Source: a virus
Taxonomy: Duplodnaviria; Caudoviricetes
Direction: 5' to 3' (one strand)
IMG/VR virus record: IMGVR_UViG_3300029705_000042
Length of the DNA stretch: 64,000 nt
Position 1 is the stretch's first letter. Each line of letters opens with the position of its first letter. The translations under genes were made by a program, and so were the position numbers. Positions 722 to 64,000 of this stretch are shown here, in pieces. A model generated the notes under the pieces. The model was not told the DNA's origin. It searched no databases and saw only the letters and a list, made by a program, of their open reading frames with translations.

Positions 722-763
722 TTCTTATCCTTTTTTAATTATTTACCATTTAAAATTAGAATT

Positions 764-1216
764 TTAGTTGGTGCTTCCAAAACCGCCAATTCTCACATTG
801 TCAGTGTTGCCGTTATCTGCTCTCAAAAACTTAAAAAACGCACCTTGAGCAATTCTATCTCCTTTATGAATATCTTGCCAATCATCGCTAATATTCTTTA
901 AGAAAATGCCGATATTTCCATCGTTACTCTCATTAGAATAATAATCTTGGTCAATCCAGCCCTGTGTGTTTGCAAGCATCCACTTGCCGCCCATAGAACT
1001 GCGAACATTAAGGATTAAACATTCGTCATCCTGCATATATGCTTTTACATCAGTCCATACTTTTACAATGGCGTCTGGAGGAATCGCATAATTATTATCA
1101 TTTGCATAAAAATCATATGCCATTGCCTTGCTAGTACCTGCGGTTGGTAGTATTACATCGCCATTAGTTTTTCTTTTCTCGTCAATTACAACTTCAAAGC
1201 CTCTAATCTTTTCCAT
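764..1216 (-). CDS. dut: trimeric dUTPase (start at MEKIRG, downstream of RBS)
   Basis: Motifs AYDF, RSS, GWIDQDY, GDRIAQG, RIGGFGST. Confidence 0.93.
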   Translation of the reverse strand: MEKIRGFEVVIDEKRKTNGDVILPTAGTSKAMAYDFYANDNNYAIPPDAIVKVWTDVKAYMQDDECLILNVRSSMGGKWMLANTQGWIDQDYYSNESNDGNIGIFLKNISDDWQDIHKGDRIAQGAFFKFLRADNGNTDNVRIGGFGSTN

Positions 1217-1241
1217 TTTATTTCTACCTTTCTTTAATAAA

Positions 1242-1442
1242 CTACTCAATTATTAAAGTATATAAGCCACAGTGACATTCGCCAGATATACCTTCTGTGA
1301 TTCTGTCTCTGAACTCTTTACACATACATTTATTGTCTTCATTAAAAACAATAGCGCAAGCACAATGTCCATTGTTTTCTTTTATTTTTTCACGAATCTC
1401 TTCAACTAAAACTTTGTTCGAATTTGTTACTATTTTAATCAT
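1242..1442 (-). CDS. ferredoxin-thioredoxin reductase catalytic-subunit-like protein, 66 aa
   Basis: GHCAC...CMC...CHCGLY matches the FTR CPC/CPC/CHC pattern; start reassigned to MIKIV. Confidence 0.7.
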   Translation of the reverse strand: MIKIVTNSNKVLVEEIREKIKENNGHCACAIVFNEDNKCMCKEFRDRITEGISGECHCGLYTLIIE

Positions 1443-1926
1443 TGATTTTATCTTCTTTCCAGAATTTATATGTAATATCGTTCCATTTATTTTCACGCCA
1501 ATTCCATCTAAACATTTTTTGATTGGTATTTGGATTGTTAAGACTGCCATAAGCATTATCATAATGTCCTATTTTACAATAATCCAAATTACCCAATACT
1601 CTAATATTAAGATTGCTCATGGAGTCAGCACCAGTATACAAGGCGGTTTTTAATTTATGTTGCTTAATTTGAATTAATAGGTCGGTTAATTCTTTTTGGT
1701 TTTGGTCTCCTCCCATAAAGCAAACACAAGTAATAAGACCTTTATATTTTTCAATTAAACCACCTAAATCATCAGAGATATAATTGCCTTTATATTCCCA
1801 TAAATATTTGCTGTGGCAACCCACACATTTGTATGGGCAGCCACTAATATTAATTACAAGTGTTACTTCATCAGGAACTTCTTGAAATACAATACTATAT
1901 CCAAGATATTTTAATTTATTATTCAT
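1435..1926 (-). CDS. nrdG: anaerobic RNR activase (radical SAM)
   Basis: FQEVPDE, SGCPYKCVGCHS, GGD; adjacent to nrdD; start at MNNKL. Confidence 0.93.
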   Translation of the reverse strand: MNNKLKYLGYSIVFQEVPDEVTLVINISGCPYKCVGCHSKYLWEYKGNYISDDLGGLIEKYKGLITCVCFMGGDQNQKELTDLLIQIKQHKLKTALYTGADSMSNLNIRVLGNLDYCKIGHYDNAYGSLNNPNTNQKMFRWNWRENKWNDITYKFWKEDKIND

Positions 1927-3742: not shown

Positions 3743-3745
3743 ATT

Positions 3746-4387: not shown

Positions 4388-6638
4388 TAGTTTTGTCGAA
4401 ATTTTTTAAAAGTTTTTGCATAAAAGTATGTCTAACGAGGTTTGCCTTTTTCTTAACGGCTTGATTTACACTTTGCAAAGTACCTAAATGATATAATTTT
4501 TCTTTCATTCGTGTAAGTCCAACATACAACAGATTGGAATTTAACATAAAAATGTGTGATTGTGGACTACATAAAATTACCGTTTTAAAACCGCCGCCCT
4601 GTGATTTATGAATTGAGATAGCGTAGCCTAACTTAACCATATTCATATCATTTCTATAATACTTAACACGAACACCGTTAAAATCGGCAATCACATATGT
4701 ATTATAAATTTCTTTTATAATGGCAGTTTCACCGTTTGCTACAAATGCTGTCTCTGGTTTGTCATCTAAAAACCAATCTTTATCGTCGCTATCTTTTACT
4801 AACTCTGCATTGTAGTTATTAACGGTCTGAAGTATTAAATCGCCCTCATAATAAGTTGTTTCACCAACTTTCATATTAACTTCGCTACCATAATTGGGAT
4901 TGGCAATTCTCTGAATCATATTGTTCAGTTGCACAGAACCACAATCACCAACATTTTTTGCCGTTAACACTTGAATGTCTTCAATACTGTTGCCATTGTC
5001 CAATAATTTTTTATACAAAGCAACAACATTTCTCGGAATTAATTCAGAGGCTAAATCAATAAACATATAGTCTTGATTGTCACCAAATACTGTTGCCTTA
5101 GCCTTCATATCTTTTGTTAGATATTCTTTACAACATCTTGCATCGGTTGCCACACGCATTAAACCGCCACTTGAATATCTAAAGATTTTATTTAGAGTAA
5201 CAGTAGGAATTATATTTGCTTCCATAAAATCATGAAGCAAATTACCACAAGATACGCTCGGTAACTGTGCATTGTCGCCAATCATAAGAAGCTTTGTATA
5301 CTTAAAATCAATTGCATCAAGTAGCTTCTTGAACAACCAAATATCAACCATCGAAAACTCATCGACAATTACAATATCACAATAAAGTTTATGTTCTTCG
5401 TTGTATGTCCAAGTGTTGGGCGGTATATAGCCTAAGCCTCTATGGATAGTTGAGGCAGATTCTTTGGTATTTTCATGCAAAACCTTAGCAGCTCGTCCTG
5501 TAGGTGACATTAGTTGGAAGGATTTATTATTATCTTTTAACATTTTAATCAATCCTTGCGTAGATGCAGTTTTACCACTACCAGCAAAACCATTCAAAAT
5601 GGAGATGTTGTTTTTGCATACCACATCAAGAATCTGAACTTGTTCGTCGGATAATTCAAAGTCGCCTACCGCCCTATACTTCTCAATGTCATAGTCCCAT
5701 ACATTGTTTACATTATTAATATTAGTAAGAATTGTATCGGCAATATACTTTTCAGTTTCATAGGTTTTACGAAGAGCAACCGTTATATCCTCTTTATTAT
5801 AATAAATATTATCGTCCTTGATAACATCAACAAAATGATTGGCACAAGCAGCTACTGTTTTTAAGCACTGCTGTCTAAGGTCAGCTAAATTCATATTGGT
5901 ATGTCCTTCGTTCTCATTCTCTTCTAACAGATACAATACGCAAGATAAACATCTATCTGGAGAGGTCTTAACATCATAACCAAAATCTATAATGTTTTCT
6001 TTTTGCAACTGAAGAATAATACTGTCTGCCTTCTTAAATCCTATTTGCGAAATCTGAGTCAAGGTTGTATATGGATTTGTTTTTAATTTTTCTTTTAATT
6101 TATCTACAGAAGAATATTTGTCGTAAATTTTCTTAATCATATTCATTGACAAAACATTCTTAAACTCAATTACCAAATCCATAAGTATAAAATTTGAAGC
6201 GATTTTATCTTTTATTTTTTCAAATGTCTTTTGACCAATTCCTTTAAGTTTGGAAAAATCAACATCAGATAAGTCATTGTTTCTGATTTTTTGAATAATA
6301 GTTGGATAATTTTCGATTAAGGTTTTTGCCTGATTTTCTGTTAAAATTTCTGAGAGAAAAATATATGTTTCTTCAGCCGTTGTTGGTACATCTCGTCTCA
6401 GATTAATAACTTTATAACTTGTTCCATATTTATTTATTTGTTCTTCTGCCGTTATCTCATATTCAACGCCTAAAACAAGGTCTGACAATTCTCCTATAAT
6501 TGACACATTTCCATAACGACTAAGTTTAAGCTCTGGATATTCGTTTTTATTAATATTAACGGCATATATTTTATAATCTGGAGTATTATAAATACATCTT
6601 TCGATTACGCCCTTGAATTTGTATTGCTTATTGTCCAT
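4371..6638 (-). CDS. recD2: RecD2-like SF1B helicase
   Basis: GFAGSGKT, SPTGRAA, TIHR, VDEFSM, GDNAQLPSV, YAISIHKSQG, LYVGLTR; N-terminal HhH region. Confidence 0.93.
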   Translation of the reverse strand: MDNKQYKFKGVIERCIYNTPDYKIYAVNINKNEYPELKLSRYGNVSIIGELSDLVLGVEYEITAEEQINKYGTSYKVINLRRDVPTTAEETYIFLSEILTENQAKTLIENYPTIIQKIRNNDLSDVDFSKLKGIGQKTFEKIKDKIASNFILMDLVIEFKNVLSMNMIKKIYDKYSSVDKLKEKLKTNPYTTLTQISQIGFKKADSIILQLQKENIIDFGYDVKTSPDRCLSCVLYLLEENENEGHTNMNLADLRQQCLKTVAACANHFVDVIKDDNIYYNKEDITVALRKTYETEKYIADTILTNINNVNNVWDYDIEKYRAVGDFELSDEQVQILDVVCKNNISILNGFAGSGKTASTQGLIKMLKDNNKSFQLMSPTGRAAKVLHENTKESASTIHRGLGYIPPNTWTYNEEHKLYCDIVIVDEFSMVDIWLFKKLLDAIDFKYTKLLMIGDNAQLPSVSCGNLLHDFMEANIIPTVTLNKIFRYSSGGLMRVATDARCCKEYLTKDMKAKATVFGDNQDYMFIDLASELIPRNVVALYKKLLDNGNSIEDIQVLTAKNVGDCGSVQLNNMIQRIANPNYGSEVNMKVGETTYYEGDLILQTVNNYNAELVKDSDDKDWFLDDKPETAFVANGETAIIKEIYNTYVIADFNGVRVKYYRNDMNMVKLGYAISIHKSQGGGFKTVILCSPQSHIFMLNSNLLYVGLTRMKEKLYHLGTLQSVNQAVKKKANLVRHTFMQKLLKNFDKTIDKKD

Positions 6639-7365
6639 TTACATCCCTCGTACTATTATCATAGCTAAATTCGCCAAAAAACTCTTCTTCCCATTCTTTT
6701 CTTTGTTTGATAGCATCCTCAAAATCAGAAAAGCTTTTTCTATATCGTTCTTTATTTGCCGATATTTCAACATACCATTTTTTATCTCTTTCACTCCAAC
6801 GAACACCAGTGACTCCAGATGTATTGTCGTTCCTTACACCTTTGTTCATATTATTTTGAGAATATGTTGCTATTCTCAAATTCGATTTTCTATTGTCGTA
6901 TTTTGCATCTTTATTTTTATGGTCTATATTTGGTACTTCTTTTAAGCTTGGTAGCCCCATAATAAGTCTATGTAATGTTAGTATTTTTTTACTATTAGAG
7001 GGGTAAGTAACTACATATCCATCGTTGTTGATGCACCAACAATAGTCCTTAATTAAATGATAATCTTCTAAATCGAACCAAAATTCTTCGTCTTTAGATG
7101 TATAACCGATACCATATTCACCAGATAAATCATATGCATTGTATTTTTTACTTCTCGCAATAATCATTTCTATATTGTGACAACCACAAGATTTAGAATG
7201 TCCCCTTTTAAGATTGCTGCCTAATACAATAACTTCATTACCGCAATCGCATTTACATAGCCATCGTACATGATGATGACCTTTTGGAGTTATATAATCT
7301 TCAGCTCTTTTTATAACTGTTAATTTGTGAAATTTTTGTCCCGTTAAATCTATAAATCTCCCCAT
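6628..7365 (-). CDS. free-standing HNH endonuclease with AP2-like C-terminus
   Basis: DLTGQKF..WLCKCDCG..SCGC; IDHKN..DNRKSNLR..N; NTSGVTGV. Confidence 0.88.
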   Translation of the reverse strand: MGRFIDLTGQKFHKLTVIKRAEDYITPKGHHHVRWLCKCDCGNEVIVLGSNLKRGHSKSCGCHNIEMIIARSKKYNAYDLSGEYGIGYTSKDEEFWFDLEDYHLIKDYCWCINNDGYVVTYPSNSKKILTLHRLIMGLPSLKEVPNIDHKNKDAKYDNRKSNLRIATYSQNNMNKGVRNDNTSGVTGVRWSERDKKWYVEISANKERYRKSFSDFEDAIKQRKEWEEEFFGEFSYDNSTRDVNGQ

Positions 7366-11904: not shown

Positions 11905-11928
11905 TCTTTACCTCTTAAAACCTTTATT

Positions 11929-12594
11929 TTATGACCAGTCATCTTCTCTGTTAATCGGATGATTATTTTTGTATTCATCTAATTCCTTAAGAATACCTCT
12001 ATAGTAGTCCGTAGCATTTTCATTACCATCCTTTGTTTCTTTGACATCTTGGCAATGCAAACACCTATAGTCGCTTATACAAGCGTCCACTTCATTGTCC
12101 AACCTCTTTACGACCATATCTTTTGAGTATAGTCTTCCACAATCGCAACAAACCCTTAAATCATCTTCTTTGATACCAAGCTGTTCTTCAATCACTTTGC
12201 TTAAATCTCCAAGAATAAAACCTCGTTCAATCAACATCTCTGCAAGTTCGCCATCAAAAATATCTGAATCATACCAAGGAAGAGTTCTCCAATAATCTAA
12301 CAACACTTCTTTATGAGTTAACAAACAAGCCTTGCCAAAAGCAGCAAACCAACCGCTTGTAGATGTATTCATTGGAATACCGTCTTCTGCAAAAATTCCT
12401 AAACTATAATACTTGTGAATTCTGAATAACTGATTGCGAAACTCTTTCAAAAAGTCATCTGTAATTAAATTTTTAATATCTTGCGGAATTGTATATTCAA
12501 TACAAACGCCATCTCCATCTTTTACTATTGGCATATAAATCTCTTCCTTTCTGTGTATTAAAATCTTTGTTTTATAATCTCTCTTCGTATTCAT
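11929..12594 (-). CDS. hypothetical protein with Zn-finger-like Cys pairs
   Basis: CCDC ... CLHC; stop codon inside site 11916-11931. Confidence 0.65.
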   Translation of the reverse strand: MNTKRDYKTKILIHRKEEIYMPIVKDGDGVCIEYTIPQDIKNLITDDFLKEFRNQLFRIHKYYSLGIFAEDGIPMNTSTSGWFAAFGKACLLTHKEVLLDYWRTLPWYDSDIFDGELAEMLIERGFILGDLSKVIEEQLGIKEDDLRVCCDCGRLYSKDMVVKRLDNEVDACISDYRCLHCQDVKETKDGNENATDYYRGILKELDEYKNNHPINREDDWS

Positions 12595-15781: not shown

Positions 15782-15806
15782 CTAATCACCTCTTAAAACT
15801 GCAATT

Positions 15807-15974
15807 TTACTTACACAAATCTTCGTACATATGCTTGTATTCAAGCAGTTCTTCTAATCTATTTGCCACATCAAAACACAATAAAGACCAATTTGTTGCA
15901 CAAGTATCAACTCTATCATTCTTGTGTTTTTCATATAATCTTCTTAATTCTCTAATCATTACTTCAGTATCCAT
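15807..15974 (-). CDS. 55-aa hypothetical protein absent from the ORF track (MDTEVMIREL...EDLCK)
   Basis: Hand translation; stop in site 15794, RBS next to site 15989. Confidence 0.7.
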   Translation of the reverse strand: MDTEVMIRELRRLYEKHKNDRVDTCATNWSLLCFDVANRLEELLEYKHMYEDLCK

Positions 15975-16160: not shown

Positions 16161-16186
16161 TTATTTCACCCTTTAAAATCACCATT

Positions 16187-16402
16187 TTAAATTTCGTTTT
16201 TATCATCGAGATAAAAGAATTCTGTGTGACTTCCCACATCGAACACCTTAAGACCTTCTTTATCTCTCCAAGTTCTTGTATAATAAATTTTAAAATTTCT
16301 TTCTTCACAAAAGGCGTGGATTATTTCAACTGCTACCTCTTCTGTCGATGGTGCAGCAATAATTCTTCTTTCGCCTCTTGAATTTTCGAAATATAATTTC
16401 AT
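16187..16402 (-). CDS. hypothetical protein
   Basis: 71 aa; stop in site 16174. Confidence 0.7.
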   Translation of the reverse strand: MKLYFENSRGERRIIAAPSTEEVAVEIIHAFCEERNFKIYYTRTWRDKEGLKVFDVGSHTEFFYLDDKNEI

Positions 16403-24663: not shown

Positions 24664-24696
24664 ACACTCACCTCTTCTCCACTTAAAATCGCTATT

Positions 24697-33639: not shown

Positions 33640-33676
33640 TACTTTTTTTAAAAAAATATCATTTAAAATTAAGTTT

Positions 33677-36532: not shown

Positions 36533-36535
36533 AAT

Positions 36536-42069: not shown

Positions 42070-42307
42070 AATCTCGATTTTAATTTCTTTCGAGTATCAA
42101 TTTTCTATAACAATCTTCAAATCGCCAATCATATTCATCGACGCCATCAATAAATCGCACCTTATATGATTCTACACCATATAAATAATAATCAATATCT
42201 ACAATTTCACCAATCTGTAGATACCTCTTGTGCGATTCATCTGTAATAAGTATATAATCTCCACTTCTTAACATGTGCGCTCCTCATCAATCTCGATTTT
42301 AATTTCT
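42070..42307. repeat. 19-bp direct repeat flanking gene 42080-42274
   Basis: aatctcgattttaatttct at 42070-42088 and 42289-42307. Confidence 0.9.
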
Positions 42308-45698: not shown

Positions 45699-45712
45699 AT
45701 CAATTCTCCTTA

Positions 45713-46081
45713 TCAATCATAACCATACTCGCCAAAGGCAACAATTGTTTCGCCAGAGGGAGTCGTAAATTCTTCATAAAAACCTTCGAGATATTCGTTG
45801 CCCTCGTCATCCCAAGAGATAAAGCCAATATCTTTCAGAATCTCGTCATCAATTTCTTCTTTGTCCTTATAATATTTATTCCTCTTTGCAAATTCTACTG
45901 CTTCATCTCTTGTATAAAGCTGATTCTCAACAGGCTTGCTAAATTCCCATCCCCAACCATCTCTATACAGATAAAGATGTTCTTTATGCCATCTATCGTA
46001 ATCGCTCTTCATCATCATTGTAATAGAATGGGTGCTGCTACTATTAGTTTCAAAAACGCTTCGTCTAATCTGTCTCTTCAT
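45713..46081 (-). CDS. acidic protein with N-terminal MKRQIRRSVFETNSSSTHSI motif
   Basis: First 20 aa nearly identical to the neighbour, remainder unrelated by eye. Confidence 0.8.
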   Translation of the reverse strand: MKRQIRRSVFETNSSSTHSITMMMKSDYDRWHKEHLYLYRDGWGWEFSKPVENQLYTRDEAVEFAKRNKYYKDKEEIDDEILKDIGFISWDDEGNEYLEGFYEEFTTPSGETIVAFGEYGYD

Positions 46082-46095
46082 ATTAATTTTCCTCC

Positions 46096-46644
46096 TTAGT
46101 TTCCTTTGTAAAAATAATCATAATTTTCGGGGTCATGATATGGATTTAGCTTTTCAACATATTTGCCATTCTCATATTCCCAAGTTGTTCTATCGGCAAT
46201 ATTACATCCTGCGGGACAAGAGTCTTGATTGTCATTCCCAGTATAAACACTACTATCGCCAAACAGATATCTCATAAGTAAATCTTCGTTTCCAAGAACG
46301 GCGAAGATGAATTCTCTTGCTTCGTTGCTATGGTCAACATATCCATAATCAAGCCACTTATATCCAGACTCGCTATCAATATACTTAGGCTCTTCAAATT
46401 CGTATTCAATTGAATAGCTATCCAGTATGTTCTTAAGCTGTTCAAGCAATTCATCAGAATCATTCTGTTCAAGAATAGCAGTATAAAGATAATCTGCCGT
46501 GTCTACACAGTCATTTTCCCAACCGAATTCTCCGATTCTGAAATGAATATATTTTCCAATCACAGGATTCTTCTTTGAAATGGCAATGCTGTGCGTACTA
46601 CTTGAATTTGTTTCAAACACACTATTTCTAATCTGTCTTTTCAT
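46096..46644 (-). CDS. acidic protein with N-terminal MKRQIRNSVFETNSSSTHSI motif
   Basis: Same leader; GEFGW and GYVDH motifs. Confidence 0.8.
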   Translation of the reverse strand: MKRQIRNSVFETNSSSTHSIAISKKNPVIGKYIHFRIGEFGWENDCVDTADYLYTAILEQNDSDELLEQLKNILDSYSIEYEFEEPKYIDSESGYKWLDYGYVDHSNEAREFIFAVLGNEDLLMRYLFGDSSVYTGNDNQDSCPAGCNIADRTTWEYENGKYVEKLNPYHDPENYDYFYKGN

Positions 46645-46682
46645 ATAAATTTATTCCTTTCTTATTTATTAAAAACCTTATT

Positions 46683-46823
46683 TTATTTGCTCTTTATTTT
46701 CTTATACCGAGGGCAATCTTTTGTTGACTTATTTCCACAAACAACATTATCCATATACCAAATACAACAACCGCCCTCTTTAATTGCTTTCTGATATATC
46801 TTACAGTTCTTACATTTACTCAT
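46683..46823 (-). CDS. 46-aa Cys-rich protein absent from the ORF track
   Basis: MSKCKNCKIYQKAIKEGGCCIWYMDNVVCGNKSTKDCPRYKKIKSK; paralog at 49801. Confidence 0.8.
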   Translation of the reverse strand: MSKCKNCKIYQKAIKEGGCCIWYMDNVVCGNKSTKDCPRYKKIKSK

Positions 46824-47430: not shown

Positions 47431-48189
47431 CTACATTATTTGAGAATTGTCATAAGACCAAGTTCCAAAATATATTTCTTCTGCTTTCTTTCGTGCCTTA
47501 ACAGCATCTTCAAACTTATCAAAAAATCCTAAATGCATTTCATTTCTGTCCTTTGATATTCTCGCATGCCATTTCCCAATTCTTTTATTCCAACTAACAC
47601 CAGTTACACCACTTGTATTATCACTCTTCAAACCTTTGTTCATTTGATTTTGACTGTTGGTTGCAACTCTAAGATTATACTTCCTATTATCATTTCTTGT
47701 CTCTTTTCCATGGATATGGTCAACTTCTACTTTTTTATATGAAACTTCAGTTAATCCCATTACGAGCCTATGCATCTGAATGTTTTTCTTTGAATTTTTT
47801 ATGTCTTTTGCGACAATATATCTATTGGCACCGATATGCCAACTATAATCTTTTATCTTTTCATAATCTTCTAAGTCAAAATAAAATTCTTCGCCATTAG
47901 CAGTATATCCTATTCCATATTCACCAGATAAATCGTATGTATTATATTTCTTTTTCTTTATTGCATTACTTTCTTTTGTTCTTTCCGTCTTAAGACATCC
48001 ACAAGATTGTGTTTTCTTGCTATGTAACTGTGTGGCACGAACAATGACTTTAGTTTTATTTTCGCAACTACATTCGCACAACCACTGCGAATCGTGCCTC
48101 CCTTTCGGTGAAATATAATCTTCTACTTGTTCTAAAACGGTTAATCTATTAAACTTTTGTCCAGTTAAATCTTTTTTCACTTTAACCAT
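47431..48189 (-). CDS. free-standing HNH-AP2 endonuclease
   Basis: DLTGQKF, WLCECSC, SCGC, VDHIHG..DNRKYNLR, NTSGVTGV. Confidence 0.88.
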   Translation of the reverse strand: MVKVKKDLTGQKFNRLTVLEQVEDYISPKGRHDSQWLCECSCENKTKVIVRATQLHSKKTQSCGCLKTERTKESNAIKKKKYNTYDLSGEYGIGYTANGEEFYFDLEDYEKIKDYSWHIGANRYIVAKDIKNSKKNIQMHRLVMGLTEVSYKKVEVDHIHGKETRNDNRKYNLRVATNSQNQMNKGLKSDNTSGVTGVSWNKRIGKWHARISKDRNEMHLGFFDKFEDAVKARKKAEEIYFGTWSYDNSQIM

Positions 48190-49772
48190 ATTATTAACCT
48201 CTTAAAATCCCCTATTGTGTGTTCCATTTGATATATCTGACCATTGAAAAATACATTGCTTGCCATCATCTTAATAATTTCTCTTGCTTCTTCTAGTGTT
48301 TTAATTTCATCAATTGCTTTTACATCGTGCTTCATAATGCGTTTATACAATTCACATACTCTATCAAACATATTTTCCATCCCTTACAAAACCTTTAATT
48401 GTCAACATTATATTTCTCATAATCAATTATTCCAAACTGGTCATCCTGGTCAAATATATTAGGATAAAAAATTCCAACCCAAAAATCATCTTGAAGTGCT
48501 TGGTAAGCTTTAAATTCTTCGTTCCATTTTTGTACCTCAGCAACAACCTCTTCGTTCAATGCACCTGATTCATCACAATAATCGCCACTTGTTACCTTAT
48601 ATTCAAGCGTCTCGTAAGTTTCTTTGTCCACAAATCTATTAGCTAAATATATTCCCGTATGCATACAACCAAGGATAAATATCATAATTGCAAGCACAAC
48701 GCCTGAAATGCGATATATCAACGCTCCAACACACACAATACCATCACTATCTATTCTGAATCCCCAGATAAGCAATCCAACACCTATGATAAATATAATT
48801 GCAAACAACCACAACAACATAATAAATAATAACCCCTTTCTACATTTAAAATTCTTGTTTTATATTCCGTAAAATTCCTTCATAGAAATAATTGAGTTAT
48901 CATAATGGCAAACATAATATGCCTCACCATTATTTTCAAATACATCAATATTTGAAATATGTACACAACGATAATACATATCATCGTCTTTAGATTGCCC
49001 TTCATCTAAAACCAACCAGCCATCAACGATATTGCCAGCATCTGTTGGTTTAAATAGTCGCACATCCCAAGCGTGTCTATCATATGGTGAATAAAAACAT
49101 TTTCCCTGTAATATTCTTGTCATATCTTTTACCTCTAAAGCTTTAAAAATCTTCTTTTATGTCGTCTTTTGGAATCCAATTAGAATATGCATCATAATCT
49201 TTCATACAATCATTAACATATTCACCACAACCATGAGTTTCTTCGTTGCAACGACCACAGTTTGCACATTTTCTTCCATCCTTAAAACATACAACACGAA
49301 CAATTTCATAAACCTGAATCTCCTTGTTCTTAAAAGGAAACTCTTTGCACTTTGGACACTTAATTGTTTCTACCATTTCTTCTTCGGTCATTTCATATCC
49401 AGTCCAACTATTATTCGTTTCAAAATATACTGCATCTTGTTCACACTCTTCAATAGAGTGCATATAATATCCGTCAGACCCATTATCATTAAATAAATTA
49501 ACTGCTACTGTTTTTATTGGCATTCCGCATTTTTCACAATACATACTCTCACCTATTAAAACTCTGCTTTTATGTCATTATCTATTGATTATTCTTTCGA
49601 TATCTTCCAAAGAATATTTTATTGAATCTATCAGACGGAAGATTTCATCTCGTCCTCTTTCCGTCTCATATCCAATTCTCAATATCTCTATTACCGCACA
49701 GTGAAACTTACTTGAAACTTCATTTTCTTTATTCAATAACATATCAACAATCTGCTTTGTGTTCATACTCAC
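48177..49772 (-). other. accessory genes (48177, 48395 membrane protein, 48860, 49143 Zn-finger-like, 49578)
   Basis: ORFs with RBS, mostly separated by palindromic sites. Confidence 0.7.
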
Positions 49773-49800
49773 CTCAAAATTTCCACTTAAAACTTTACTT

Positions 49801-49944
49801 TTAAGTCCCCTTTTTATATTTATATTCCGTACAATCTTTTACAGATTTATTTCCGCAAACAACATTGTCCATATACCACTTACAACAAGCAAACTTGTTC
49901 AAGGTCTTGTTGTATGTCTTACAAGTCTTACATCTATTATCCAT
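49801..49944 (-). CDS. 47-aa Cys-rich protein absent from the ORF track
   Basis: MDNRCKTCKTYNKTLNKFACCKWYMDNVVCGNKSVKDCTEYKYKKGT. Confidence 0.8.
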   Translation of the reverse strand: MDNRCKTCKTYNKTLNKFACCKWYMDNVVCGNKSVKDCTEYKYKKGT

Positions 49945-49957
49945 ATAACATTGCCTC

Positions 49958-50602
49958 TTAATCTTCCGTTTCTTCGTCTTCCATCTTCATGACTACATCG
50001 CAGATACCACACTTGATAGTCATATCTCTCTTACCCTTAACTTCTGCTCCACAATCTGGACAAGTGTACTTGAAGACGCTCTTCTTTCTTCCGCCACCGC
50101 CACTAGACGGCTTCATAGGGACACTTCTGAAATACTCGAATGCTTCTTCATTGGGCTTAACAACTTCGTTCATATAGGCTTCCAAAGCTTCAGACATAGA
50201 AGTGTAGCCATAGCCAACACCCTTGCCCTTTTCAACTACCAGACCAACTTTTTCCGCAGAACTCTTGAACTTCTTATTATGTACGTTACCGCTACAATCC
50301 TTAATGTCATTCATCTTATTATAGTAATGGCACATCTCATGCAGAAGAGTTTCTGCTACATCAGCAGGAGTGCGAGTATTGAACCATCTGGGGTCGATAT
50401 TAATTTCATAGTAAGAAGTTTCTTCCGACTCAACATCATTCTTATCTCGCCAAGTTCTGTCTACTGTGAAATGTCCAAGGACGTTTCCTCTGGTCTTCTG
50501 AATGGTAATGACAGGTTCAGGCAGTTCCCCATTGAACTTATCACGATTCAGGATGTCAAAGATTCTATACAATTCTTCCAGTGCCTTGCCAATAATGTTC
50601 AT
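49958..50602 (-). CDS. SprT-like zinc metalloprotease with C-terminal Zn ribbon
   Basis: TLLHEMCH, HNKKF, CPDC...CGIC. Confidence 0.85.
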   Translation of the reverse strand: MNIIGKALEELYRIFDILNRDKFNGELPEPVITIQKTRGNVLGHFTVDRTWRDKNDVESEETSYYEINIDPRWFNTRTPADVAETLLHEMCHYYNKMNDIKDCSGNVHNKKFKSSAEKVGLVVEKGKGVGYGYTSMSEALEAYMNEVVKPNEEAFEYFRSVPMKPSSGGGGRKKSVFKYTCPDCGAEVKGKRDMTIKCGICDVVMKMEDEETED

Positions 50603-50634
50603 AATAATTGTTCCTTTCTTTAATTTACACTTGT

Positions 50635-50663
50635 ATTATATCACAAAATTTTCCATCTGTCAA
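50635..50663 (-). promoter_or_regulatory. sigmaA promoter
   Basis: TTGACA-17-TATAAT. Confidence 0.85.
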
Positions 50664-50749
50664 GTAGTTATAAGAATATTCTGATAATTAAAGTTGCACA
50701 TTTTTTTAATATTTAAAAACAAACTTATTTTGGCTTTAAAATCTGTCTT

Positions 50750-51517
50750 TTAATCTTTTTTCTCTTCGGTCTTCTCGCAGTAAATTGTTCCTTTTAACTC
50801 CGCAAAACTATGTAACATCCAATGATGGTGGATATTATACGGATGTCTGAAGCAGGATTTATTATTGCATTTCGAAGAACAGAAAGTAATATCATCACTT
50901 GTCCATGAACTTTTCTTTTTCATATTTTCCACCTCATTGCTCTACATCACAGAACGCACCGTTCACATACATCTTTTCAAGATTGTGTGCAATTCGTAAT
51001 TCTCTGTCCGTCATTTCCCAAATAAGTTTCCATCTATCATTTTTATCTCTAATATAAATCATAGGCATTTTCTTTTCGTCATCCCAACACCAAAAGTTTG
51101 AGAATGCGTCAAGAGAGTTTGTATATACCTTTGTATCAAAAGAGCAATGGTCTTTGATATATCTTAATTTTCTACGACAATTGCTAAACCCCATTCCTGC
51201 ATCAATTTCAATAAGGTCTTCGCCAGTCTCTAATAATGCTCTATGGTGATTAAGCCAACCATCTTCAAAATAAACTATCATATTTTCCACCTCACAAGGC
51301 TATAAAATTCGCCTTTTATTTATTACATACCGCTCTTAATGTAATAAATTTTCGACTGAAGCCTACCAACTCTATCCATAACGGACAGATGCCAACCGCA
51401 CTTACTTCTTCCTTTTTCCATCTGTCGCTTGTATTCTTCATTGTGCTTCAAAAAATATTCCGTAAGAGCAGCGTCAATCAATTCAAGTTCTTCCTTATTA
51501 AACATAGCTACCTCCAC
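50750..51517 (-). other. three small accessory genes (50750, 50934, 51323)
   Basis: Sites at 50737, 51303 and 51519. Confidence 0.65.
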
Positions 51518-51565
51518 TTAAAATTTATCTTTTATGTTATGTTTATAACCTTATCTTTTATGTAT

Positions 51566-51634
51566 TCGGTAAGTGGAATTATCTTCCACTTCCGATTGCA
51601 GATATATTATACACTATGTTTAACTACTTGTCAA
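51566..51634 (-). promoter_or_regulatory. sigmaA promoter (51606-51634) followed by a leader hairpin (51566-51594)
   Basis: TTGACA-17-TATAAT; tcgg(t)aagtggaa ... ttccacttccga. Confidence 0.8.
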
Positions 51635-51656
51635 TAGTTTTTCTAAAATTTTCTTA

Positions 51657-52715
51657 TTATTTTTTGAAAAATTCCGTATAGGATTTTCCAATAGCGTTAT
51701 GTCTTGCTGTGATTGAGGCATTACGAGCGATTCCATTTGAACAAGCCTCCATATATGCAGAGTATGTTTCAGAATCGTTTTCAGTTTTGAAAAAGTTTAC
51801 CATAAACTCTGCAAACATTGCTTCGTTAATTTTCCCAATGGATTGTTTAATATACGGAATAAGGGAAATTAAATGTGTTTCCGTATATAGCTTTTTCGCC
51901 ACATCCTTCTCCTTATTACCTACTAATTCTTCATGTACACTCACCACATAATCAAATACTTTAGCAAGCTCTAATTTTTCACTATCGGAAATTTCCGCTT
52001 CCTCAATCATAGGATTAAACTGTTTACTTGCAAAAGAAATATCTTCTATATCTTTATTAAGCATCGTCCAAGCCTTCATCACAAGGGTTACTTGATTCTT
52101 GCTTGCTCTTGCTTTTTCCGTCAACATTTCTTCAAAGAGTTTGTGCGAACCAATATCAAGTAGCTCTTCAATATTCCGAGCAGATGCCAATGTCCTTGCC
52201 TTAGTTGACAAAGGTTTCCCATTATTTAACCGCTTAAACAACTCCCTTTCTTCTTCTTTGGTAAGATTGTCAAAGTATGTTACTGCAAATGTTACGGTAT
52301 TGAGATAATCCTTTAATCCCTCTGGCAGCTCACTAAATTTCTTATTAGAAATATCTACGACAACTTCTTTATCTTCATCTGTATCAAAGTAGGTAATAGG
52401 TTGTAACTTGGATAAAGCAAACTCATCGTTCAAAAATTCCTTTACAGTTGAAAGTCTTTGCTTACCGTCCATAATATAGTATGTGTTACTACCTCTTTTA
52501 CCGCTTCCATCGTCAATCCGTTTTGCATATACTGTTGGTATAGGATAACCAAGAATCATACTTTCAATTAGCGAAGATTTTCTTGCCCTCTCCCAAACAA
52601 AGCTTCTCTGGATAATGTGTTCAAAATTAATTTTTTCGTTCTTAACCATTCCGCTTAATTGTTTTGCCGACCAAACAATACTTGCTTTCTCTAATGACAT
52701 AAAGAACAACCCCAT
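51657..52715 (-). CDS. DUF262 (ParB/Srx-like, GmrSD N-terminal) protein
   Basis: QRSFVW, LIES...YPIP, MDGKQRL, FKRLNNGKPL. Confidence 0.85.
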   Translation of the reverse strand: MGLFFMSLEKASIVWSAKQLSGMVKNEKINFEHIIQRSFVWERARKSSLIESMILGYPIPTVYAKRIDDGSGKRGSNTYYIMDGKQRLSTVKEFLNDEFALSKLQPITYFDTDEDKEVVVDISNKKFSELPEGLKDYLNTVTFAVTYFDNLTKEEERELFKRLNNGKPLSTKARTLASARNIEELLDIGSHKLFEEMLTEKARASKNQVTLVMKAWTMLNKDIEDISFASKQFNPMIEEAEISDSEKLELAKVFDYVVSVHEELVGNKEKDVAKKLYTETHLISLIPYIKQSIGKINEAMFAEFMVNFFKTENDSETYSAYMEACSNGIARNASITARHNAIGKSYTEFFKK

Positions 52716-52739: not shown

Positions 52740-53540
52740 TTAATTATCAAGAAAATCCAATCCAAGATTCAAGCTGTTAAATACATCTTCAATTTCTTCA
52801 TCCATAATTCCAATATACCTTTTCGTGATAGCCACAGATGAGTGGTTGAAGATTGTCATTAACATTACCAAAGCCTTTTCTTTATCTTCTGCGTTATGCC
52901 ATACATGATAACCAAATGTTTTACGCAAGCTATGTGTTCCAATATTGCGTTCAATTCCAACTTCAATAGCGGTATTGGAAATAATTTTCCAAACACTTCT
53001 TTCAGAAATTGCATTGTCACCTTTTCTGGATTTGAAAACAAAATCGTTCATATCCTCAATCGGATATTGTTTTGTATATTCAATGATTGTTTTCTTTACA
53101 ACATCATTAAAATACAATGTAACAAACTTACGATGCTTCTTAGTTTTCTTTGGCTGAACCTTATAAGAATCTTTAAATGTCATATCATCTTTTAAGAAAA
53201 AATTCCAACGAAGTGTGATAAGGTCGCTGATACGAAGAGAAAGATTGATACCGATTAAAAACAGCATTTTATTCCGACAAGCAATCTGTTTCTTATTTTC
53301 ATCAGGAGCTTCTTCAATGCGTTTATTAAATACATCAATCATAGACTTAATCTCTTCTTCAGAAGTGAATGGATAAACCTCGCTTGATACACCAGCAACC
53401 TTATTACTATGTCGTTTGTCAATAGTTCCATCCTTATTAAGTCTAACTTCTTTTTTGGATAGTCCGCCACGAATAACCCTTCCAGAAAATCCGTTAAATT
53501 CTATAACATTGCTTGTTGAAGTTTTTGGTAAAGCACTCAT
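52740..53540 (-). CDS. tyrosine recombinase with complete catalytic set
   Basis: LRISD (R), KKTKK (K), HSLRKTF (HxxR), FNHSS..IT.RY (H, Y). Confidence 0.93.
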   Translation of the reverse strand: MSALPKTSTSNVIEFNGFSGRVIRGGLSKKEVRLNKDGTIDKRHSNKVAGVSSEVYPFTSEEEIKSMIDVFNKRIEEAPDENKKQIACRNKMLFLIGINLSLRISDLITLRWNFFLKDDMTFKDSYKVQPKKTKKHRKFVTLYFNDVVKKTIIEYTKQYPIEDMNDFVFKSRKGDNAISERSVWKIISNTAIEVGIERNIGTHSLRKTFGYHVWHNAEDKEKALVMLMTIFNHSSVAITKRYIGIMDEEIEDVFNSLNLGLDFLDN

Positions 53541-53575: not shown

Positions 53576-53604
53576 ATTATACCACAACTCACTTGGTTTG
53601 TCAA
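53576..53604 (-). promoter_or_regulatory. sigmaA promoter of the recombinase gene
   Basis: TTGACA-17-TATAAT with extended -10 TG. Confidence 0.85.
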
Positions 53605-56521: not shown

Positions 56522-56550
56522 ATTATATCACAATAATTTCCACTTGTCAA
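56522..56550 (-). promoter_or_regulatory. sigmaA promoter of the tRNA
   Basis: TTGACA-17-TATAAT. Confidence 0.85.
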
Positions 56551-56682: not shown

Positions 56683-58795
56683 TCAATAAAAAAGCTCCGT
56701 CATCACATTAGACTTGGATACATTATATTTATCTGCAATGTATTCAATAATCTGTTTCTGTATATGTTTGCTTCTTTCCCCAATGGCTTCGCCAATAATG
56801 TGAATTAGTTCAATAGCCTCATCATAATTAGTAAACAATGCTCCGCAATCAGAACTATCGTCTTGCTTTAATTTTTCAAGACCAGACTCGGTATAACATT
56901 CTGTTTTTCTTGCACAAGCATAACAGTTTCTATTCATTATCTAATTCCTCCATATAAAATTGTGTTTTTATCTATTAAGTAAAGAGATTTTCCTTAACAT
57001 AATCAAACCAATATATCTTTACATCTTCCTCGTCAATTTCAAATCCGTCAATCTCTTTTATTGCTTCTTCGTGGTCTTTTTCCCAACTACTTGTGATATA
57101 ATTTACACAATAATCATCATAAGGAAAGTCCAAATTATCCAAAATTTCAATAACTAAATCCGCTCTCATAATTTAATCCTCCTAAATAATTTTTTTATCC
57201 GTAATAAGTTCCGCAAATATGACAGATTCTACTTCTGTAATCAAAATCTTCCGTCAAATACTCACCAAGTTTTGATTTAAGTTCATCTATAATTTCTTCT
57301 ATATCATTATATGCTTTCTTAAACAATGTGGGATAATGTGTCAGCGGTACATAGGCAATGATATCGCCTCTATAAGATTCATAATCTCTGCCCCAATCAA
57401 AATATCCATCATCGTTGATTGTCCGTGCTTCGCCAGTAAACTCACTTATATATTCACAAATTCCTTCATCAAAAAGAATGTATGCAAGGTCTGTATCTTC
57501 ATCCAGAGGCTCAACATCTAACTTTGATATGACTATTTTCATCGTTTCCTTATCAAATACCAAACCGTAATCATCAATCGCCCAATCTCTCGTACTCATA
57601 ATAATTTCCTCCTATATATTTATTAATTAAAATCATTATTTTATTTGTTGTTAATCATAAGATGTGCGTACTTTTCAACAACGCCATAAGTTAATTTAGT
57701 CGGCTCTTCTGTATCGTAATAATCTACTTCCGTATATTTATCCAACACAATAAGATACAAAGGAATACAACCAAACAAAAACCATCCAATATAATCCGTA
57801 ACAATCATATGTTCATACTTGTTTCGTTTCTTGTTCCAAAACTCAAATCTAATTTTCCGATAAGGCTTTTTAACAATCATAAATCCTCCGCTTAAAACCA
57901 CACTTTTATATCTTATCTATATGCTCTTGTTCTGTATCAATAGTCATTGTTTCAAAGTCTAACCAATATCCATTATCCAAACGCAGACTACCATTTTGAT
58001 TTTTTACCATAATGTCAAAACAATACATAAACTTTGTCCAAGTCGGCATAAGTCTATATATAAATTTATATTCCATCAATTTATATAAAAACTTTTTCAT
58101 ATATCATTACCTCTTTAAAATCACTCTTTTATGTGGCTTTCTATTTTCTTTCCCACAAACATCAACACAATGTCAAACATTATTACAAATATTATCCATA
58201 TTGCCAAATCAATTGTGCCTGCAAAATCAAGTTGACAACCATTGATAAAATAGATAAATATAATAGTCAAACAACACATAGAAATTGCAATTGGTTTAAT
58301 ATATTTATTAAATGAAAGCATTTCTAATAACAAGGCGATAACAAAAGCCATTAGTATATCTGTAATCATATATCTTTACCTCTTAAAATCGTCATTTTAA
58401 CACGCCACAATTCGCAACATATTTAATCTTGCATATCTTATGGCACTTTTAACTATATCCATACTCGCTTGTTCATACTTCGTAAAATCAAAAGTAACAT
58501 CTTTAACCTTAAAAGAGCCACCTTGATTTTCTTCTACACTCTTAAGGCAATCACATACAGTTTCGATTTCGTCCATTGTTTTAAGTGACACAGAAATTTT
58601 ACTTCCAGTATACTCCCAATCTCCAATCTTTTCTGTACAACCATCATTCCAAATCTTTGTTCCTGCTCCCTGCGGAGGCTTAATCCCCTTGAATATAATC
58701 GTTTGACCTATCACACCTACATCAATACCACCATATCCAAAAAAACAAGTGTTTGTTTTTATATCCACATAATCAACCATTACAAAATCCTCCAT
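56683..58795 (-). other. array of small accessory genes (56683, 56975, 57195, 57641, 57906, 58121 membrane protein, 58397)
   Basis: Nearly every junction is a TAAAA-N6-TTTTA site. Confidence 0.75.
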
Positions 58796-58822
58796 TTAAA
58801 ATTATCCTTTTAAGATATAAGC

Positions 58823-61467: not shown

Positions 61468-61492
61468 TACAACACCTCTTATATATTTTTAA

Positions 61493-61678
61493 TTATTTTT
61501 CCGTTACTTCCCCAGTTTGCATATCACAAACAAGAATAATTGTTTTGCCATCACGGTCAAATTTCCAAGTGTTGACCGCAGGATTTACATACCAAGCATC
61601 CGTATCACGCTCTCCAAAATGCTTTTTATAGTATCTGTCAAGTCGTGTGTGCAACTGTTTTTCCGTTAAAGTTTTCAT
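61493..61678 (-). CDS. small hypothetical protein, paralog of 61273-61467
   Basis: Same shared motifs. Confidence 0.75.
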   Translation of the reverse strand: MKTLTEKQLHTRLDRYYKKHFGERDTDAWYVNPAVNTWKFDRDGKTIILVCDMQTGEVTEK

Positions 61679-61903
61679 TATATCTCACTCCTTATTTATA
61701 ATATACTTTAAAATATTGTCTTACATTGTTTTGGATAGCAGAACAAACAACCCACGCATATCCTTCCGATTTGATTTTTCCAATACAAATCACTTCACCA
61801 AGTTTTGCTTCGATTGCTGGAGATTCTTTAATACATTCCATATAGATATTATACCAAACCTTTTTCATGTTTCATCACTCCTTATATATTTTCCAAGCAA
61901 TAT

Positions 61904-63868
61904 TTAAATTGCATTGTCATCAATGATAAAATCCAATCTTGTTAATACATCGTCTTGTTCATTTGTAAACGGATTATAGATATAATATGTTAAGATTTTA
62001 TCTCCTTCTTTTGCTCCGTCTACACGCTCATAACTGATATAATTTCCACCATCTTTATTTGTATAACCACCATCATCAGTATTACAATTAAGGATTTCTC
62101 CATCTAACTTATGACTTGTAACCTTACCAATGATTTTTTCCACAACGATTTTTCCTTTTCTGTTCGCCATGACTTGCGGTGTTAGTTCGCTTGTATCATA
62201 GATTTCGATTGCGTTTACATCTTTAATCATATTGTCGTAAAATTCCATTTGTGAAACATTATCAACATATATTCCGTCATGTACTTTAGTTTCAGTTATT
62301 GATACATCATCTTTGAAATTCAAACCTATTGAAAATCCAACTGATAAACATATTCCAGTATGCAATACTTTTTGCAAGATTTTGTTCATCATCCTTCATT
62401 CCCTTCGGCTTTGTTTAATGATTCAAAACTGGATGGAAGGTGTATAATTATTCAATTTTCCATCCAATGTTCAATCATTAAATGTCATTCGCAAGGCTTC
62501 CAAACCTCTACATATTTTCCGTTTGATTTTTCGTCTATAAAATCCTTCTCGTTGCAATGATAATATCCAGTAGCACTTAAAACTTCCGCATCATTATCAC
62601 TAACAAAAGCAACTCCGATTTCTTTAGTTTCTGCGTTCTTGTAGACTAAAAGCATTTTCCATCACTCCTTTAATTATTTTTGAGTTCCATCATTGCTTTT
62701 ATTAACACTTCATTCTCTGCATACTTTTTGATATAACGATAGCTCTTATAATTCGTCATGTTCTTATAAACATTGCCGATAATCAAATCTCCGTTATAGT
62801 CAAAGTAGAAAAGTATACCAACAGATTTTCCATCTTCTTTAAATTCTATGTGATACTTGTCACCTAACAGCTCTTTGTATACTTTCATTCCGTCAACTTC
62901 TTTATAGAAATGATAGTGAACAGTTTTGGTCATAATTAAAACCTCCGTTTAATCTTCATCATCGTATTCGCAACAATCGTTGATAATATCCACTATATCT
63001 TTAACAGATAACCATTCATATTTTCCGTTGACATAAACGCTACATCCGCATTCATCGTTTAAATCTCCGTACTTTCTCTCTAACAGTTCTAACAATTCTT
63101 CTTTTTCAATAAACATTTTCCAATCTCCGTTTTAAAATGATATTTTTATATGCTTGACAATATATTGTTTATTGAATATGTCATAATCCAATAATTAAAT
63201 CCTTGCATTTTTCTTCTGTTGTTGTTCATCTCTGTTGAATAATCGCAACAATCAATAAATTTATCCGTGATTTTCGCAAATTCTTTTTGTCCAAAATTCT
63301 CGTAAATTCCGTTTTCTTTTGCTTTTTTAGTTAATATCTTTTTTGCTCTGCTTATTGCTGTGTCAATCTTTTTACAGTTTAAATAATTTTCCATAATATT
63401 CTCCTTTAAAATAGTAGTTTTATAACCTTATATTTTATACTTCTTCTCCGTATGCTTCGAGAAATTCCATCTTCAAATCATCGACATTTTCTCCAATGCT
63501 TTCAAGGATTTTAATTGCCCTTCGTGTCATTTCCTTTGTGTCTTGTTCTTGCCTAATCTGTTCTGCAATACTCATATTAAAATCCTCCGTCAAACCAAAC
63601 CTTGTAAATTCATTACTCTTACACATAAAGCATCAAATTCTGCCTTTGTGATTTTCTTCCATTTCCAGAGCCAATCAATAGAACAAATACACCAGTAAAG
63701 GTCTAAACCAGTATATTTACTTGTTTCCAAGCAATCAAGAGTATCAAGTACAAGAGCATATCTCTTGTTGATTTCCTTTGCCTTATCGGTTTTCTTATTT
63801 GTTACCTTTTTCATAACTGCCTCCAAAATAATGAACATTCCCTTTGTTCTGCATACATTATACCACAA
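61904..63868 (-). other. hypothetical genes (61904-62392 with signal-like N-terminus, 62670, 62949-63116, 63146, 63435, 63590)
   Basis: Minus-strand ORFs with RBS. Confidence 0.65.
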
Positions 63869-63885
63869 ACAATCTACTTTGTCAA
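63857..63885 (-). promoter_or_regulatory. sigmaA promoter
   Basis: TTGACA-17-TATAAT with extended -10 TG. Confidence 0.85.
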
Positions 63886-64000
63886 GTAGTTTTTAGAATT
63901 TTCTAACTGTTATTTTGCACAAAATTTTGACTTGTTTGTTGTGAAATTTGACTAATCCTCCGCTTAAAATGCGATTTTTATGTGGCGGTTTAAATTCTAC

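Follow-up and report, generated by a model that had tools for sequence, protein, structure and literature searches.

Phage genomes are mosaic, and the clean exchange of unrelated genes at gene borders has been a matter of debate ever since the modular theory was put forward. Decades ago, short "linker" sequences were suggested; to our knowledge, only the PeSLs (promoter-early stem-loop elements) came close. We analyzed a 64,000-nucleotide stretch of viral DNA (Caudoviricetes; IMG/VR record IMGVR_UViG_3300029705_000042, present in animal faeces metagenomes), called the window throughout, which carries 44 copies of the interrupted palindrome TAAAA-N6-TTTTA, mostly between its genes. No description of this motif was found in the literature searched. 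The element is concrete and countable: its 6-bp spacers, termed addresses and given as read on the coding strand, are kept during gene turnover and are spaced like a code. The original prediction, made from the window sequence alone, had taken the copies for an integron-like array of promoterless mobile cassettes; our comparison of related genomes supports the cassette idea in a modified form, in which the sites would be addressed, ordered exchange joints and not integron sites.

The PeSLs of T4-type phages are likewise short repeated motifs between non-essential genes in the hyperplastic regions of large phages, and they mark points of insertion, deletion, and replacement of unrelated genes between relatives (PMC2839356, PMC4122927). 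They differ in being composite promoter-plus-terminator cassettes, for which their authors proposed homologous recombination (PMC2839356, PMC4122927); the window sites have no promoter hexamers and no G+C-rich stem, terminator-like sites are not enriched, and the arms are invariant. PeSL copies are all alike, so that exchange between nearby copies can make circles, whereas each window copy has its own conserved spacer in a fixed order. The pdif sites, or dif modules, of Acinetobacter plasmids are also many arms-plus-6-bp-spacer cores that flank accessory genes and are present in different replicons (PMC6449649), but they are 28-bp XerC/XerD sites resembling chromosomal dif and served by host Xer. 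The window sites have no dif-like arms beyond 5–6 bp, a single polarity, and ordered, lineage-specific spacers.

In heterospecific lox/FRT cassette exchange, identical arms are combined with incompatible spacers, only like sites exchange, and cassettes are swapped in register without deletion. Those variants are engineered, with 13-bp arms and an 8-bp spacer, whereas the behavior of the window sites is read from comparative genomics only. Measured against the tyrosine-recombinase core of lox, FRT, and dif, the window sites have the inverted arms around a 6–8 bp spacer but not the 9–13 bp arms. Integrons share the promoterless cassette arrays behind an upstream promoter and the tyrosine recombinase gene nearby; their attC sites, however, are long imperfect palindromes that recombine in the form of folded single strands, and the excised circles are captured at attI in free order. 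The integron-like array of the original prediction is only partly borne out, as the window sites have no attC-like fold (+1.35 kcal/mol for the forced 5-bp stem), no attI or IntI was recognized in the window, and the cassettes do not appear to move freely.

Cluster A mycobacteriophage stoperators and the SPBRE boxes of SPbeta resemble the window sites in that dozens of copies of one short motif lie in intergenic positions of a temperate phage. Both are asymmetric operators to which a repressor binds as a monomer, and neither has anything slot-specific about it. SPBRE, bound by MrpR/SroF, is a longer asymmetric sequence, and its binder in SPbeta has a tyrosine-recombinase fold (PMC10516654; bioRxiv 10.1101/2025.11.27.690993). 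An SPBRE/MrpR-SroF operator was considered and rejected: the core k-mer of nine of the ten published SPbeta target promoters is a different sequence, and at aimR, yorE, and yosX the SPBRE core adjoins the palindrome and does not lie within it.

A sharply defined motif at gene junctions

The 44 perfect copies in the window compare with 1.16 expected from 100 dinucleotide shuffles (standard deviation 1.17, maximum 4). The original prediction had counted 40 copies by hand and expected one or two by chance: the strong repeat and the chance level are real and the exact count is higher, while its base composition, with A and T each near 0.34, is incorrect for a plus strand with T at 0.37 and A at 0.30. 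The predicted N6-specific excess over a shuffled control is strict: for spacer lengths N0 to N12 the copies number 2, 0, 3, 4, 1, 0, 44, 0, 1, 0, 3, 0, and 0, with none at N5 or N7. The swapped order TTTTA-N-TAAAA is not enriched in the window. The arms are 5-bp perfect inverted repeats (6 bp with the flanking W), the spacer is exactly 6 bp in 44/44, and the arm centers are 11 bp apart, which corresponds to one helical turn. All 44 spacers differ from one another, as had been stated. Beyond the 5–6 bp arms nothing is conserved upstream, and only a generic ribosome-binding site follows downstream. Copies with one mismatch are not enriched as a class (17 versus 19.6 ± 3.8 in Markov controls), which argues for very sharp recognition; among the degenerate copies listed by the original prediction, those at 13536, 14306, and 36543 do lie at junctions, each ahead of a ribosome-binding site.

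Gene junctions on the coding (minus) strand hold 41 of the 44 copies. The claim that every copy sits at a junction thus stands for these, but not for the copies inside the recD2 open reading frame (ORF) at 4572 and inside the recombinase ORF at 53256. At 24 sites (23 in the original prediction) the upstream ORF terminates on the TAA supplied by the first arm, and at the remaining sites the stop lies within −15 to +14 nt. The second arm was said to run into the ribosome-binding site, and a GAGG-type site is indeed found behind most copies, with A at +1 in 35/43, G at +4 and +5 in 30–33/43, and ATG 10–29 nt downstream of most sites. At 33664 and 50737 the motif ends an operon and is followed by a promoter in place of the ribosome-binding site. 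According to a crude ORF calling, on which the junction densities rest, sites occupy 30 of about 82 junctions in the accessory arm (33.6–64 kb) and 7/15 in an island at 11.5–16.7 kb, versus 2/20 in the replication/NAD (nicotinamide adenine dinucleotide) block and 1/9 in the nrd/recD2/dnaE block.

The placement of the motif on the transcribed strand, behind one stop codon and ahead of the ribosome-binding site that follows, together with a purine bias at spacer positions 5–6 of the coding strand, would suit an mRNA element, that is, a hairpin or protein site for termination–reinitiation coupling, processing, or translation tuning, with the patterns in the DNA as by-products. We judge this highly improbable. 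The 5-bp A–U stem is unstable (+1.35 kcal/mol when forced, and only 2/44 sites fold at all), compensatory or G–U variants are absent because the arms never vary, the sites at 33664 and 50737 end operons with no gene start behind them, and in SPbeta the ribosome-binding site is 10–25 nt away from the motif. Such an element would also leave unexplained why conserved, ordered, well-separated loops stand beside unrelated genes. A stable RNA hairpin was rejected on account of the forced-stem energy. A promoter, with TAAAA as a −10-like box and the start in the second arm, was likewise rejected: it explains neither the dyad nor the spacer behavior and is hard to reconcile with the sites that overlap stop codons within operons.

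Conserved addresses beside replaced genes

Relatives carrying the motif were found in IMG/VR, namely G002, a complete 153-kb genome with 57 sites (the same phage as G001), G003 with 44 sites, and G005 with 12; further contigs are designated by L numbers. The window shares 24 addresses with G003 (1.9 expected), 24/24 of them collinear, and 20 with G002 (about 2 expected), 19 of them collinear, while G002 and G003 share 17, of which 16 are collinear. The sequences around these shared sites (50–80 nt on each side) are only about 30% identical, equal to non-matching site pairs, and the neighboring proteins are non-homologous at 15/17 scorable shared sites for window–G003, 16/16 for window–G002, and 11/12 for G002–G003. 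The distance between the same two addresses varies widely between genomes, for example 1057, 160, and 207 bp. In all, 36 of the 44 window addresses are found again in other contigs, and in many of these they stand beside many different neighbors with the local order retained: the run TACGAA, ACAAAC, ATAAAA, ATAGAG, ATGAAG, ATATAC, ATTATA, ACTTAA recurs in L204, L221, L232, L102, and G005, and L252 and L253 retain the address order further along the array. In G005 two blocks are inverted and the addresses flip with their genes, so site polarity tracks gene direction. The original prediction had named fixed gene order and fixed spacers across relatives as telling against it; the spacers are fixed and the genes are not. 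The copies in the window are the following.

751–766 (−), junction site, address TTCTAA; TAA is the stop of ORF 764–1249; absent from the relatives compared
4572–4587 (−), copy inside the recD2 ORF, address CGGTAA; without stop or ribosome-binding site, probably not a joint; flanks 39–40/50 identical to G003 because the recD2 gene is homologous
11916–11931 (−), junction site, address TAAAGG; same address and order in G002 and G003, flanks unrelated
12559–12574 (−), junction site, address CAAAGA; shared with G002, G003, L204
13861–13876 (−), junction site, address GTTTAA; shared with G002, G003, L015, L060
14019–14034 (−), junction site, address GCTGAA; shared with G002; one-base variant in the same slot of G003, downstream of the PD-(D/E)XK gene
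15794–15809 (−), junction site, address TTGCAG; shared with G003, L060
15989–16004 (−), junction site, address TTACGA; shared with G003
16174–16189 (−), junction site, address TGGTGA; shared with G002, G003
24684–24699 (−), junction site inside the replication block, address TAGCGA; not seen elsewhere
29530–29545 (−), site after the nadE stop, address ACATAG; no ribosome-binding site behind; shared with G003
33664–33679 (−), site closing an operon, address ACTTAA; consensus promoter next
34170–34185 (−), junction site, address ATTATA
35249–35264 (−), junction site, address ATATAC
35843–35858 (−), junction site, address ATAGAG; in at least 6 distinct flank contexts; G005 carries it too
36349–36364 (−), junction site, address ATAAAA
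37183–37198 (−), junction site, address ACAAAC; 6 contexts; not in G002 or G003
37406–37421 (−), junction site, address TACGAA; at least 9 contexts in IMG/VR
38824–38839 (−), junction site, address AACATA; one-sided breakpoints in L023, L067, L081
39275–39290 (−), junction site, address TGGGTG; not seen elsewhere
40544–40559 (−), junction site, address AGTTTA
41124–41139 (−), junction site, address AGAATA
42067–42082 (−), junction site, address TCGAGA
43825–43840 (−), junction site, address TCAAAT; shared with L252, L253
44589–44604 (−), junction site, address GAAGGA
46670–46685 (−), junction site, address TAAGGT
48847–48862 (−), junction site, address CAAGAA
49144–49159 (−), junction site, address GAAGAT
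49557–49572 (−), junction site, address GCAGAG
49788–49803 (−), junction site, address GTAAAG; shared with G002, G003, G004, G005
50737–50752 (−), site closing an operon, address GACAGA; promoter next
51303–51318 (−), junction site, address GGCGAA
51519–51534 (−), junction site, address GATAAA; directly downstream of the recombinase/DUF262 pair
53256–53271 (−), copy inside the recombinase ORF, probably chance; the same gene in L252 and L253 lacks it
56955–56970 (−), junction site, address ACACAA
57628–57643 (−), junction site, address TAATGA
57893–57908 (−), junction site, address GTGTGG
58116–58131 (−), junction site, address GAGTGA
58384–58399 (−), junction site, address TGACGA
58797–58812 (−), junction site, address GGATAA
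59478–59493 (−), junction site, address GACTAA
63133–63148 (−), junction site, address ATATCA
63407–63422 (−), junction site, address CTACTA
63965–63980 (−), site at the window edge, address ATCGCA

Between the window and its positional counterparts in G003, about 3 changes are found in about 156 spacer bases (about 98% conserved). In the same pair of genomes, the third codon positions of five core genes (dnaE, recD2, PD-(D/E)XK, helicase, and Sak4) are 55–64% identical and the second codon positions 80–97% identical; at this divergence a neutral 6-mer would be unchanged about 5% of the time. Within a genome, on the other hand, no spacer repeats: seven genomes together contain 0 identical pairs versus 6.1 expected from column-shuffled controls, from which all spacer-pair expectations derive. 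Pairs one base apart are also depleted, with 18 versus 76.5 expected over the seven genomes, while those two bases apart occur in the expected number. The depletion is individually significant in the following four genomes, of which the window, G002, and G003 share addresses and hence are not independent, whereas PJN02 is.

Window: 1 one-base-apart pair seen, 15.4 expected
G003: 2 seen, 13.4 expected
G002: 8 seen, 23.2 expected
Bacillus phage PJN02: 1 seen, 9.2 expected

Palindromic spacers are absent from the window, G002, G003, and SPbeta (0 versus about 4 expected), and pCD1602_4 has one. Spacer conservation, spacing, and non-palindromy would be useless to a regulator and useful to a mechanism that pairs spacer with spacer.

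These unique, well-separated spacers, as well as the restriction-like sharpness of the motif (invariant arms, free spacer, exact spacing), would also be expected for an interrupted-palindrome endonuclease of the BglI, SfiI, or BstXI type that cuts within N6, the junction-specific sticky ends being re-ligated in order as in ordered restriction–ligation assembly, here among co-infecting genomes. SPbeta encodes a ligase-like protein, LigB. We find this explanation improbable, since no candidate nuclease was recognized beside the arrays, 40–60 self-cuts per cycle seem costly, and none of the observations points to cutting and re-ligation in preference to strand exchange.

At the nucleotide level, as the original prediction anticipated, relatives gain, lose, and replace genes between sites and have breakpoints at the site edges. 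At the address AACATA, the gene upstream is common to L023 and L067, whose sequences part 8 nt beyond the site, while L023 and L081 have a common downstream gene and diverge 1–3 nt before it. L252 and L253, with identical recombinases and a core that is 98% identical, cease to be identical at the last base of the site TCAGGA and 6 nt after the site GATAAA; in the GATAAA–TAAGGT interval, one of them has three extra addressed slots and the other an unrelated block. SPbeta and phi3T have 22 addresses in common, in order, with identical flanks at 9, both flanks replaced at 5, and one flank replaced at 8; in the one-flank cases the identity is 100% right up to the site. Ahead of the yorE region, the same 16-mer has opposite orientations in SPbeta (L238, record 99498) and phi3T (record 89340), with about 16 similar bases on one side and otherwise unrelated flanks.

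Some departures from the address order were observed. In L100 the order is cyclically permuted, with ATAGAG and ATGAAG ahead of AGCGTA and TACGAA, in L088 ACAAAC is placed after ATAAAA, and L088 and L077 carry one 120-aa gene in different slots, so that a cassette can occasionally move to another slot. A few homologous genes likewise lie between different addresses in different contigs. Three genes at 44802–46644 (−) are kept in G002, G004, and G005 despite the otherwise hypervariable arm; one of them encodes a 304-aa Fe-S oxidoreductase-like protein (69–86% identity), which G004 places between different addresses. Neighboring addresses tend to be alike: those of the 33664–38839 run start with A, several with AT, and those of the 49144–51534 run start with G. 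This suggests that new slots may arise by local site duplication followed by spacer divergence.

The motif also reaches cultured phages, several of which show N6-specific enrichment relative to the same pattern read backwards, which served as the control.

Bacillus phage SPbeta: 34 sites, no control figure
phi3T: 30 sites, control 2
PJN02: 31 sites, control 2
Clostridioides phage pCD1602_4: 21 sites, control 4
Enterocloster phage CB473P1: 1 site, control 6, not enriched
Thomasclavelia phage TR-TP1: 4 sites, control 5, not enriched
Fusobacterium phage phiKSUM: 7 sites, control 9, not enriched

The address sets are lineage-specific: between the family of the window and the Bacillus and Clostridioides phages, no more addresses are shared than chance would give.

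Spacer-matched exchange as a proposed mechanism

Because each site has its own spacer and the order is fixed across phages, the pattern points to position-specific exchange between genomes and not to excision and capture. We propose that TAAAA-N6-TTTTA sites may serve as fixed, addressed crossover points for the promoterless cassettes of an SPbeta-like phage group. The two invariant 5–6 bp arms would be docking sites for a dimeric DNA enzyme, and strands would be exchanged within the asymmetric 6-bp spacer, where a match with the partner would be required, as in Cre/lox, FLP/FRT, and Xer/dif. With a separate spacer at each junction, at least two bases away from all others, no recombination would occur within a genome and no deletions or inversions would follow; recombination would take place with the matching junction of a relative, whether co-infecting or resident, and a pair of crossovers would swap all that lies between two addresses. 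The addresses would be held identical and ordered during gene turnover by frequent exchange or by the need for compatibility with the pool. That related phages exchange gene cassettes by such spacer-matched, site-specific recombination, with a candidate only for the enzyme, is in our estimate evenly poised between right and wrong. A natural system of addressable cassette exchange, with a shared address book of dozens of 6-bp spacers set in one universal recombinase site, seems to us a possibility just short of even; each lineage (the gut phage group, the Bacillus SPbeta group, PJN02, and pCD1602_4) would have its own book.

The comparisons show the motif statistics, the junction placement, the conserved and ordered addresses, the unrelated flanks, the breakpoints at site edges, and the code-like spacing; that catalysis is site-specific, which protein would perform it, and where the DNA would be cut are inferred. 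The geometry of inverted arms around an asymmetric 6-bp spacer agrees with the tyrosine-recombinase core put forward by the original prediction, and an apparently intact recombinase is encoded in the array, followed by a conserved gene.

52740–53540 (−), 266-aa tyrosine recombinase, Pfam Phage_integrase, candidate enzyme
51657–52715 (−), DUF262/GmrSD_N protein, conserved gene downstream of the recombinase

The recombinase is predicted to be catalytically intact: R103, K131/K132, H203, R206, H233, and Y242 are invariant in 20 homologs. Its structure model comprises the catalytic domain only, residues 1–52 being disordered though the N-terminus is conserved, and the nearest folds are XerH, XerA, and Cre. 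It is weakly similar to YopP (E = 3e-4), and no similarity was found with SPbeta YopR or YomM, nor a significant one between the DUF262 protein and YopQ. Both genes are strongly conserved on many 150–165 kb contigs, and the pair echoes, with weak sequence links, the SPbeta pair yopP (XerC-like)/yopQ (ParB_N-like) (PMC8612738). In SPbeta, a serine recombinase integrates, and the additional tyrosine-recombinase-type genes yopP and yomM have no assigned recombination sites (PMC8612738); yopQ, next to yopP, is required for lysogeny (PMC8612738; bioRxiv 10.1101/2025.11.27.690993). Whether PF00589 or PF03235 occurs together with the motif was not discriminating among five cultured relatives.

Several observations weigh against site-specific exchange. 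The conserved arms are only 5–6 bp long, while known tyrosine recombinases read 9–13 bp per arm. G004, with its few sites, also carries a member of the recombinase family, and a search there for an alternative palindrome found none; in G005 and SPbeta the family is only distantly represented, and related phages that lack the motif have tyrosine recombinases as well. Of the L252/L253 block ends, about half fall at junctions that carry no site. High-identity blocks between SPbeta and phi3T end within 25 nt of a site in 7/46 cases, where randomly placed positions would give 0.8 and randomly chosen gene ends 3.9 (P = 0.06), so that most mosaic joints of these phages lie away from sites, and the late-operon sites of SPbeta and phi3T have fully identical flanks and persist without visible exchange. 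In the window, the tight abutment to the stop codon and ribosome-binding site would also suit a role in gene expression. The evidence is all comparative and no recombination products were observed.

The short arms, the sites hugging the stop codon and ribosome-binding site, the late-operon sites without any exchange, and the off-site majority of SPbeta/phi3T joints would be accommodated if the motif were a double-stranded DNA docking site for a dimeric phage regulator or DNA-organizing protein, such as a stoperator-type roadblock repressor or a clamp loader resembling ParB (SroE/YopQ, for instance), on which short-homology recombination merely lands. Sak4 with an exonuclease, or RecA, would then use 16–22 identical bases, exchange would homogenize the spacers, and near-identical spacers would be purged because deletions would result. 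An 11-bp distance between arm centers is what helix-turn-helix dimers typically show, Sak4 (AAA_24), a PD-(D/E)XK exonuclease, and SSB are among the products of the phage, the gene after the recombinase belongs to a ParB-like clan as the ParB_N-like yopQ follows yopP in SPbeta, and the PeSLs offer a precedent (PMC2839356, PMC4122927). A regulator, however, needs no spacer, yet the spacers are far better conserved (about 98%) than third codon positions (55–64%); operator sets are normally degenerate, whereas one-mismatch copies are not enriched here; and, for homologous recombination, 16 bp is a very short stretch. That one-base-apart pairs are depleted and palindromic spacers lacking fits a base-by-base reading of the spacer, and SroF/MrpR, the only mapped regulator of these phages, binds a different motif. 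We therefore regard a docking site as rather unlikely, though a serious contender.

If spacer-matched exchange is site-specific, the ordered shuffling of genes would rest on a natural principle that is new. This would account for the rapid turnover of the early accessory genes, which probably act in counter-defence, and could supply mutually orthogonal recombination sites for genome engineering. With a true address book, co-infecting relatives could trade any gene block in register, and the backbone would be neither scrambled nor deleted. As the motif is present in the genetically tractable SPbeta and phi3T, the question is directly testable in Bacillus subtilis.

The phage, its promoters, and other genes

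The window derives from a large phage, with NrdD, RecD2, a DnaE-type polymerase, a DNA methylase, and a PD-(D/E)XK nuclease among its products, together with a DnaB-like helicase, a Sak4-type AAA_24 protein, SSB, NAD salvage genes, HNH-AP2 endonucleases, the DUF262 protein, and the tyrosine recombinase. All long ORFs are carried by the minus strand, the plus strand being T- and C-rich. None of the deposited phages searched is close to the window. The 315-aa product of ORF 28462–29409 (−) has no Pfam match and is a homolog of phi3T SroF (PDB 9RD5/9RGL, E = 2.6e-8), kept in G002 (68%) and G003 (84%). PDB 9RD5 is SroF, the integrase-fold master repressor of phi3T, according to the structure assignment of bioRxiv 10.1101/2025.11.27.690993. 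On the basis of this homolog the phage is grouped with the SPbeta-like temperate phages, and it is probably itself temperate and SPbeta-like.

Six perfect sigma-A promoters head arrays of small genes, and at the junctions only a ribosome-binding site is present, in agreement with the predicted reading of promoterless units from a few upstream sigma-A promoters. Five of the six have the upstream TG.

33611–33639 (−), consensus sigma-A promoter, 12/12 with TG, one of the six perfect ones
50635–50663 (−), perfect sigma-A promoter, TTGACA-17-TATAAT 12/12
51606–51634 (−), perfect sigma-A promoter, 12/12
53576–53604 (−), perfect sigma-A promoter, 12/12
56522–56550 (−), perfect sigma-A promoter, 12/12
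63857–63885 (−), perfect sigma-A promoter, 12/12

In four faecal DNA runs, 36 bp around 33643–33678 and likewise a stretch around 51628–51665 have a depth 20–100 times that of their surroundings, with contigs breaking on both sides; these are therefore promoter-proximal joints common to many different phages in those samples. Contig "joints" in the four DNA runs were considered as recombination products and rejected, since their sides comprise 20–29 letters and match the motif and ribosome-binding site of other phages.

An NAD salvage block at 29556–33004 (−) encodes NadE, an NAMPT-like phosphoribosyltransferase, and a PRPP-synthetase-like protein, and likely counters NAD-depleting host defences. 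A class-V aminotransferase/cysteine desulfurase is encoded at 25412–26542. Four homing-endonuclease paralogs of the HNH-AP2 type are scattered among the core genes (6628–7365, 20059–20814, 26539–27273, and 47431–48189, all on the minus strand), and their genes match one another in blastn.

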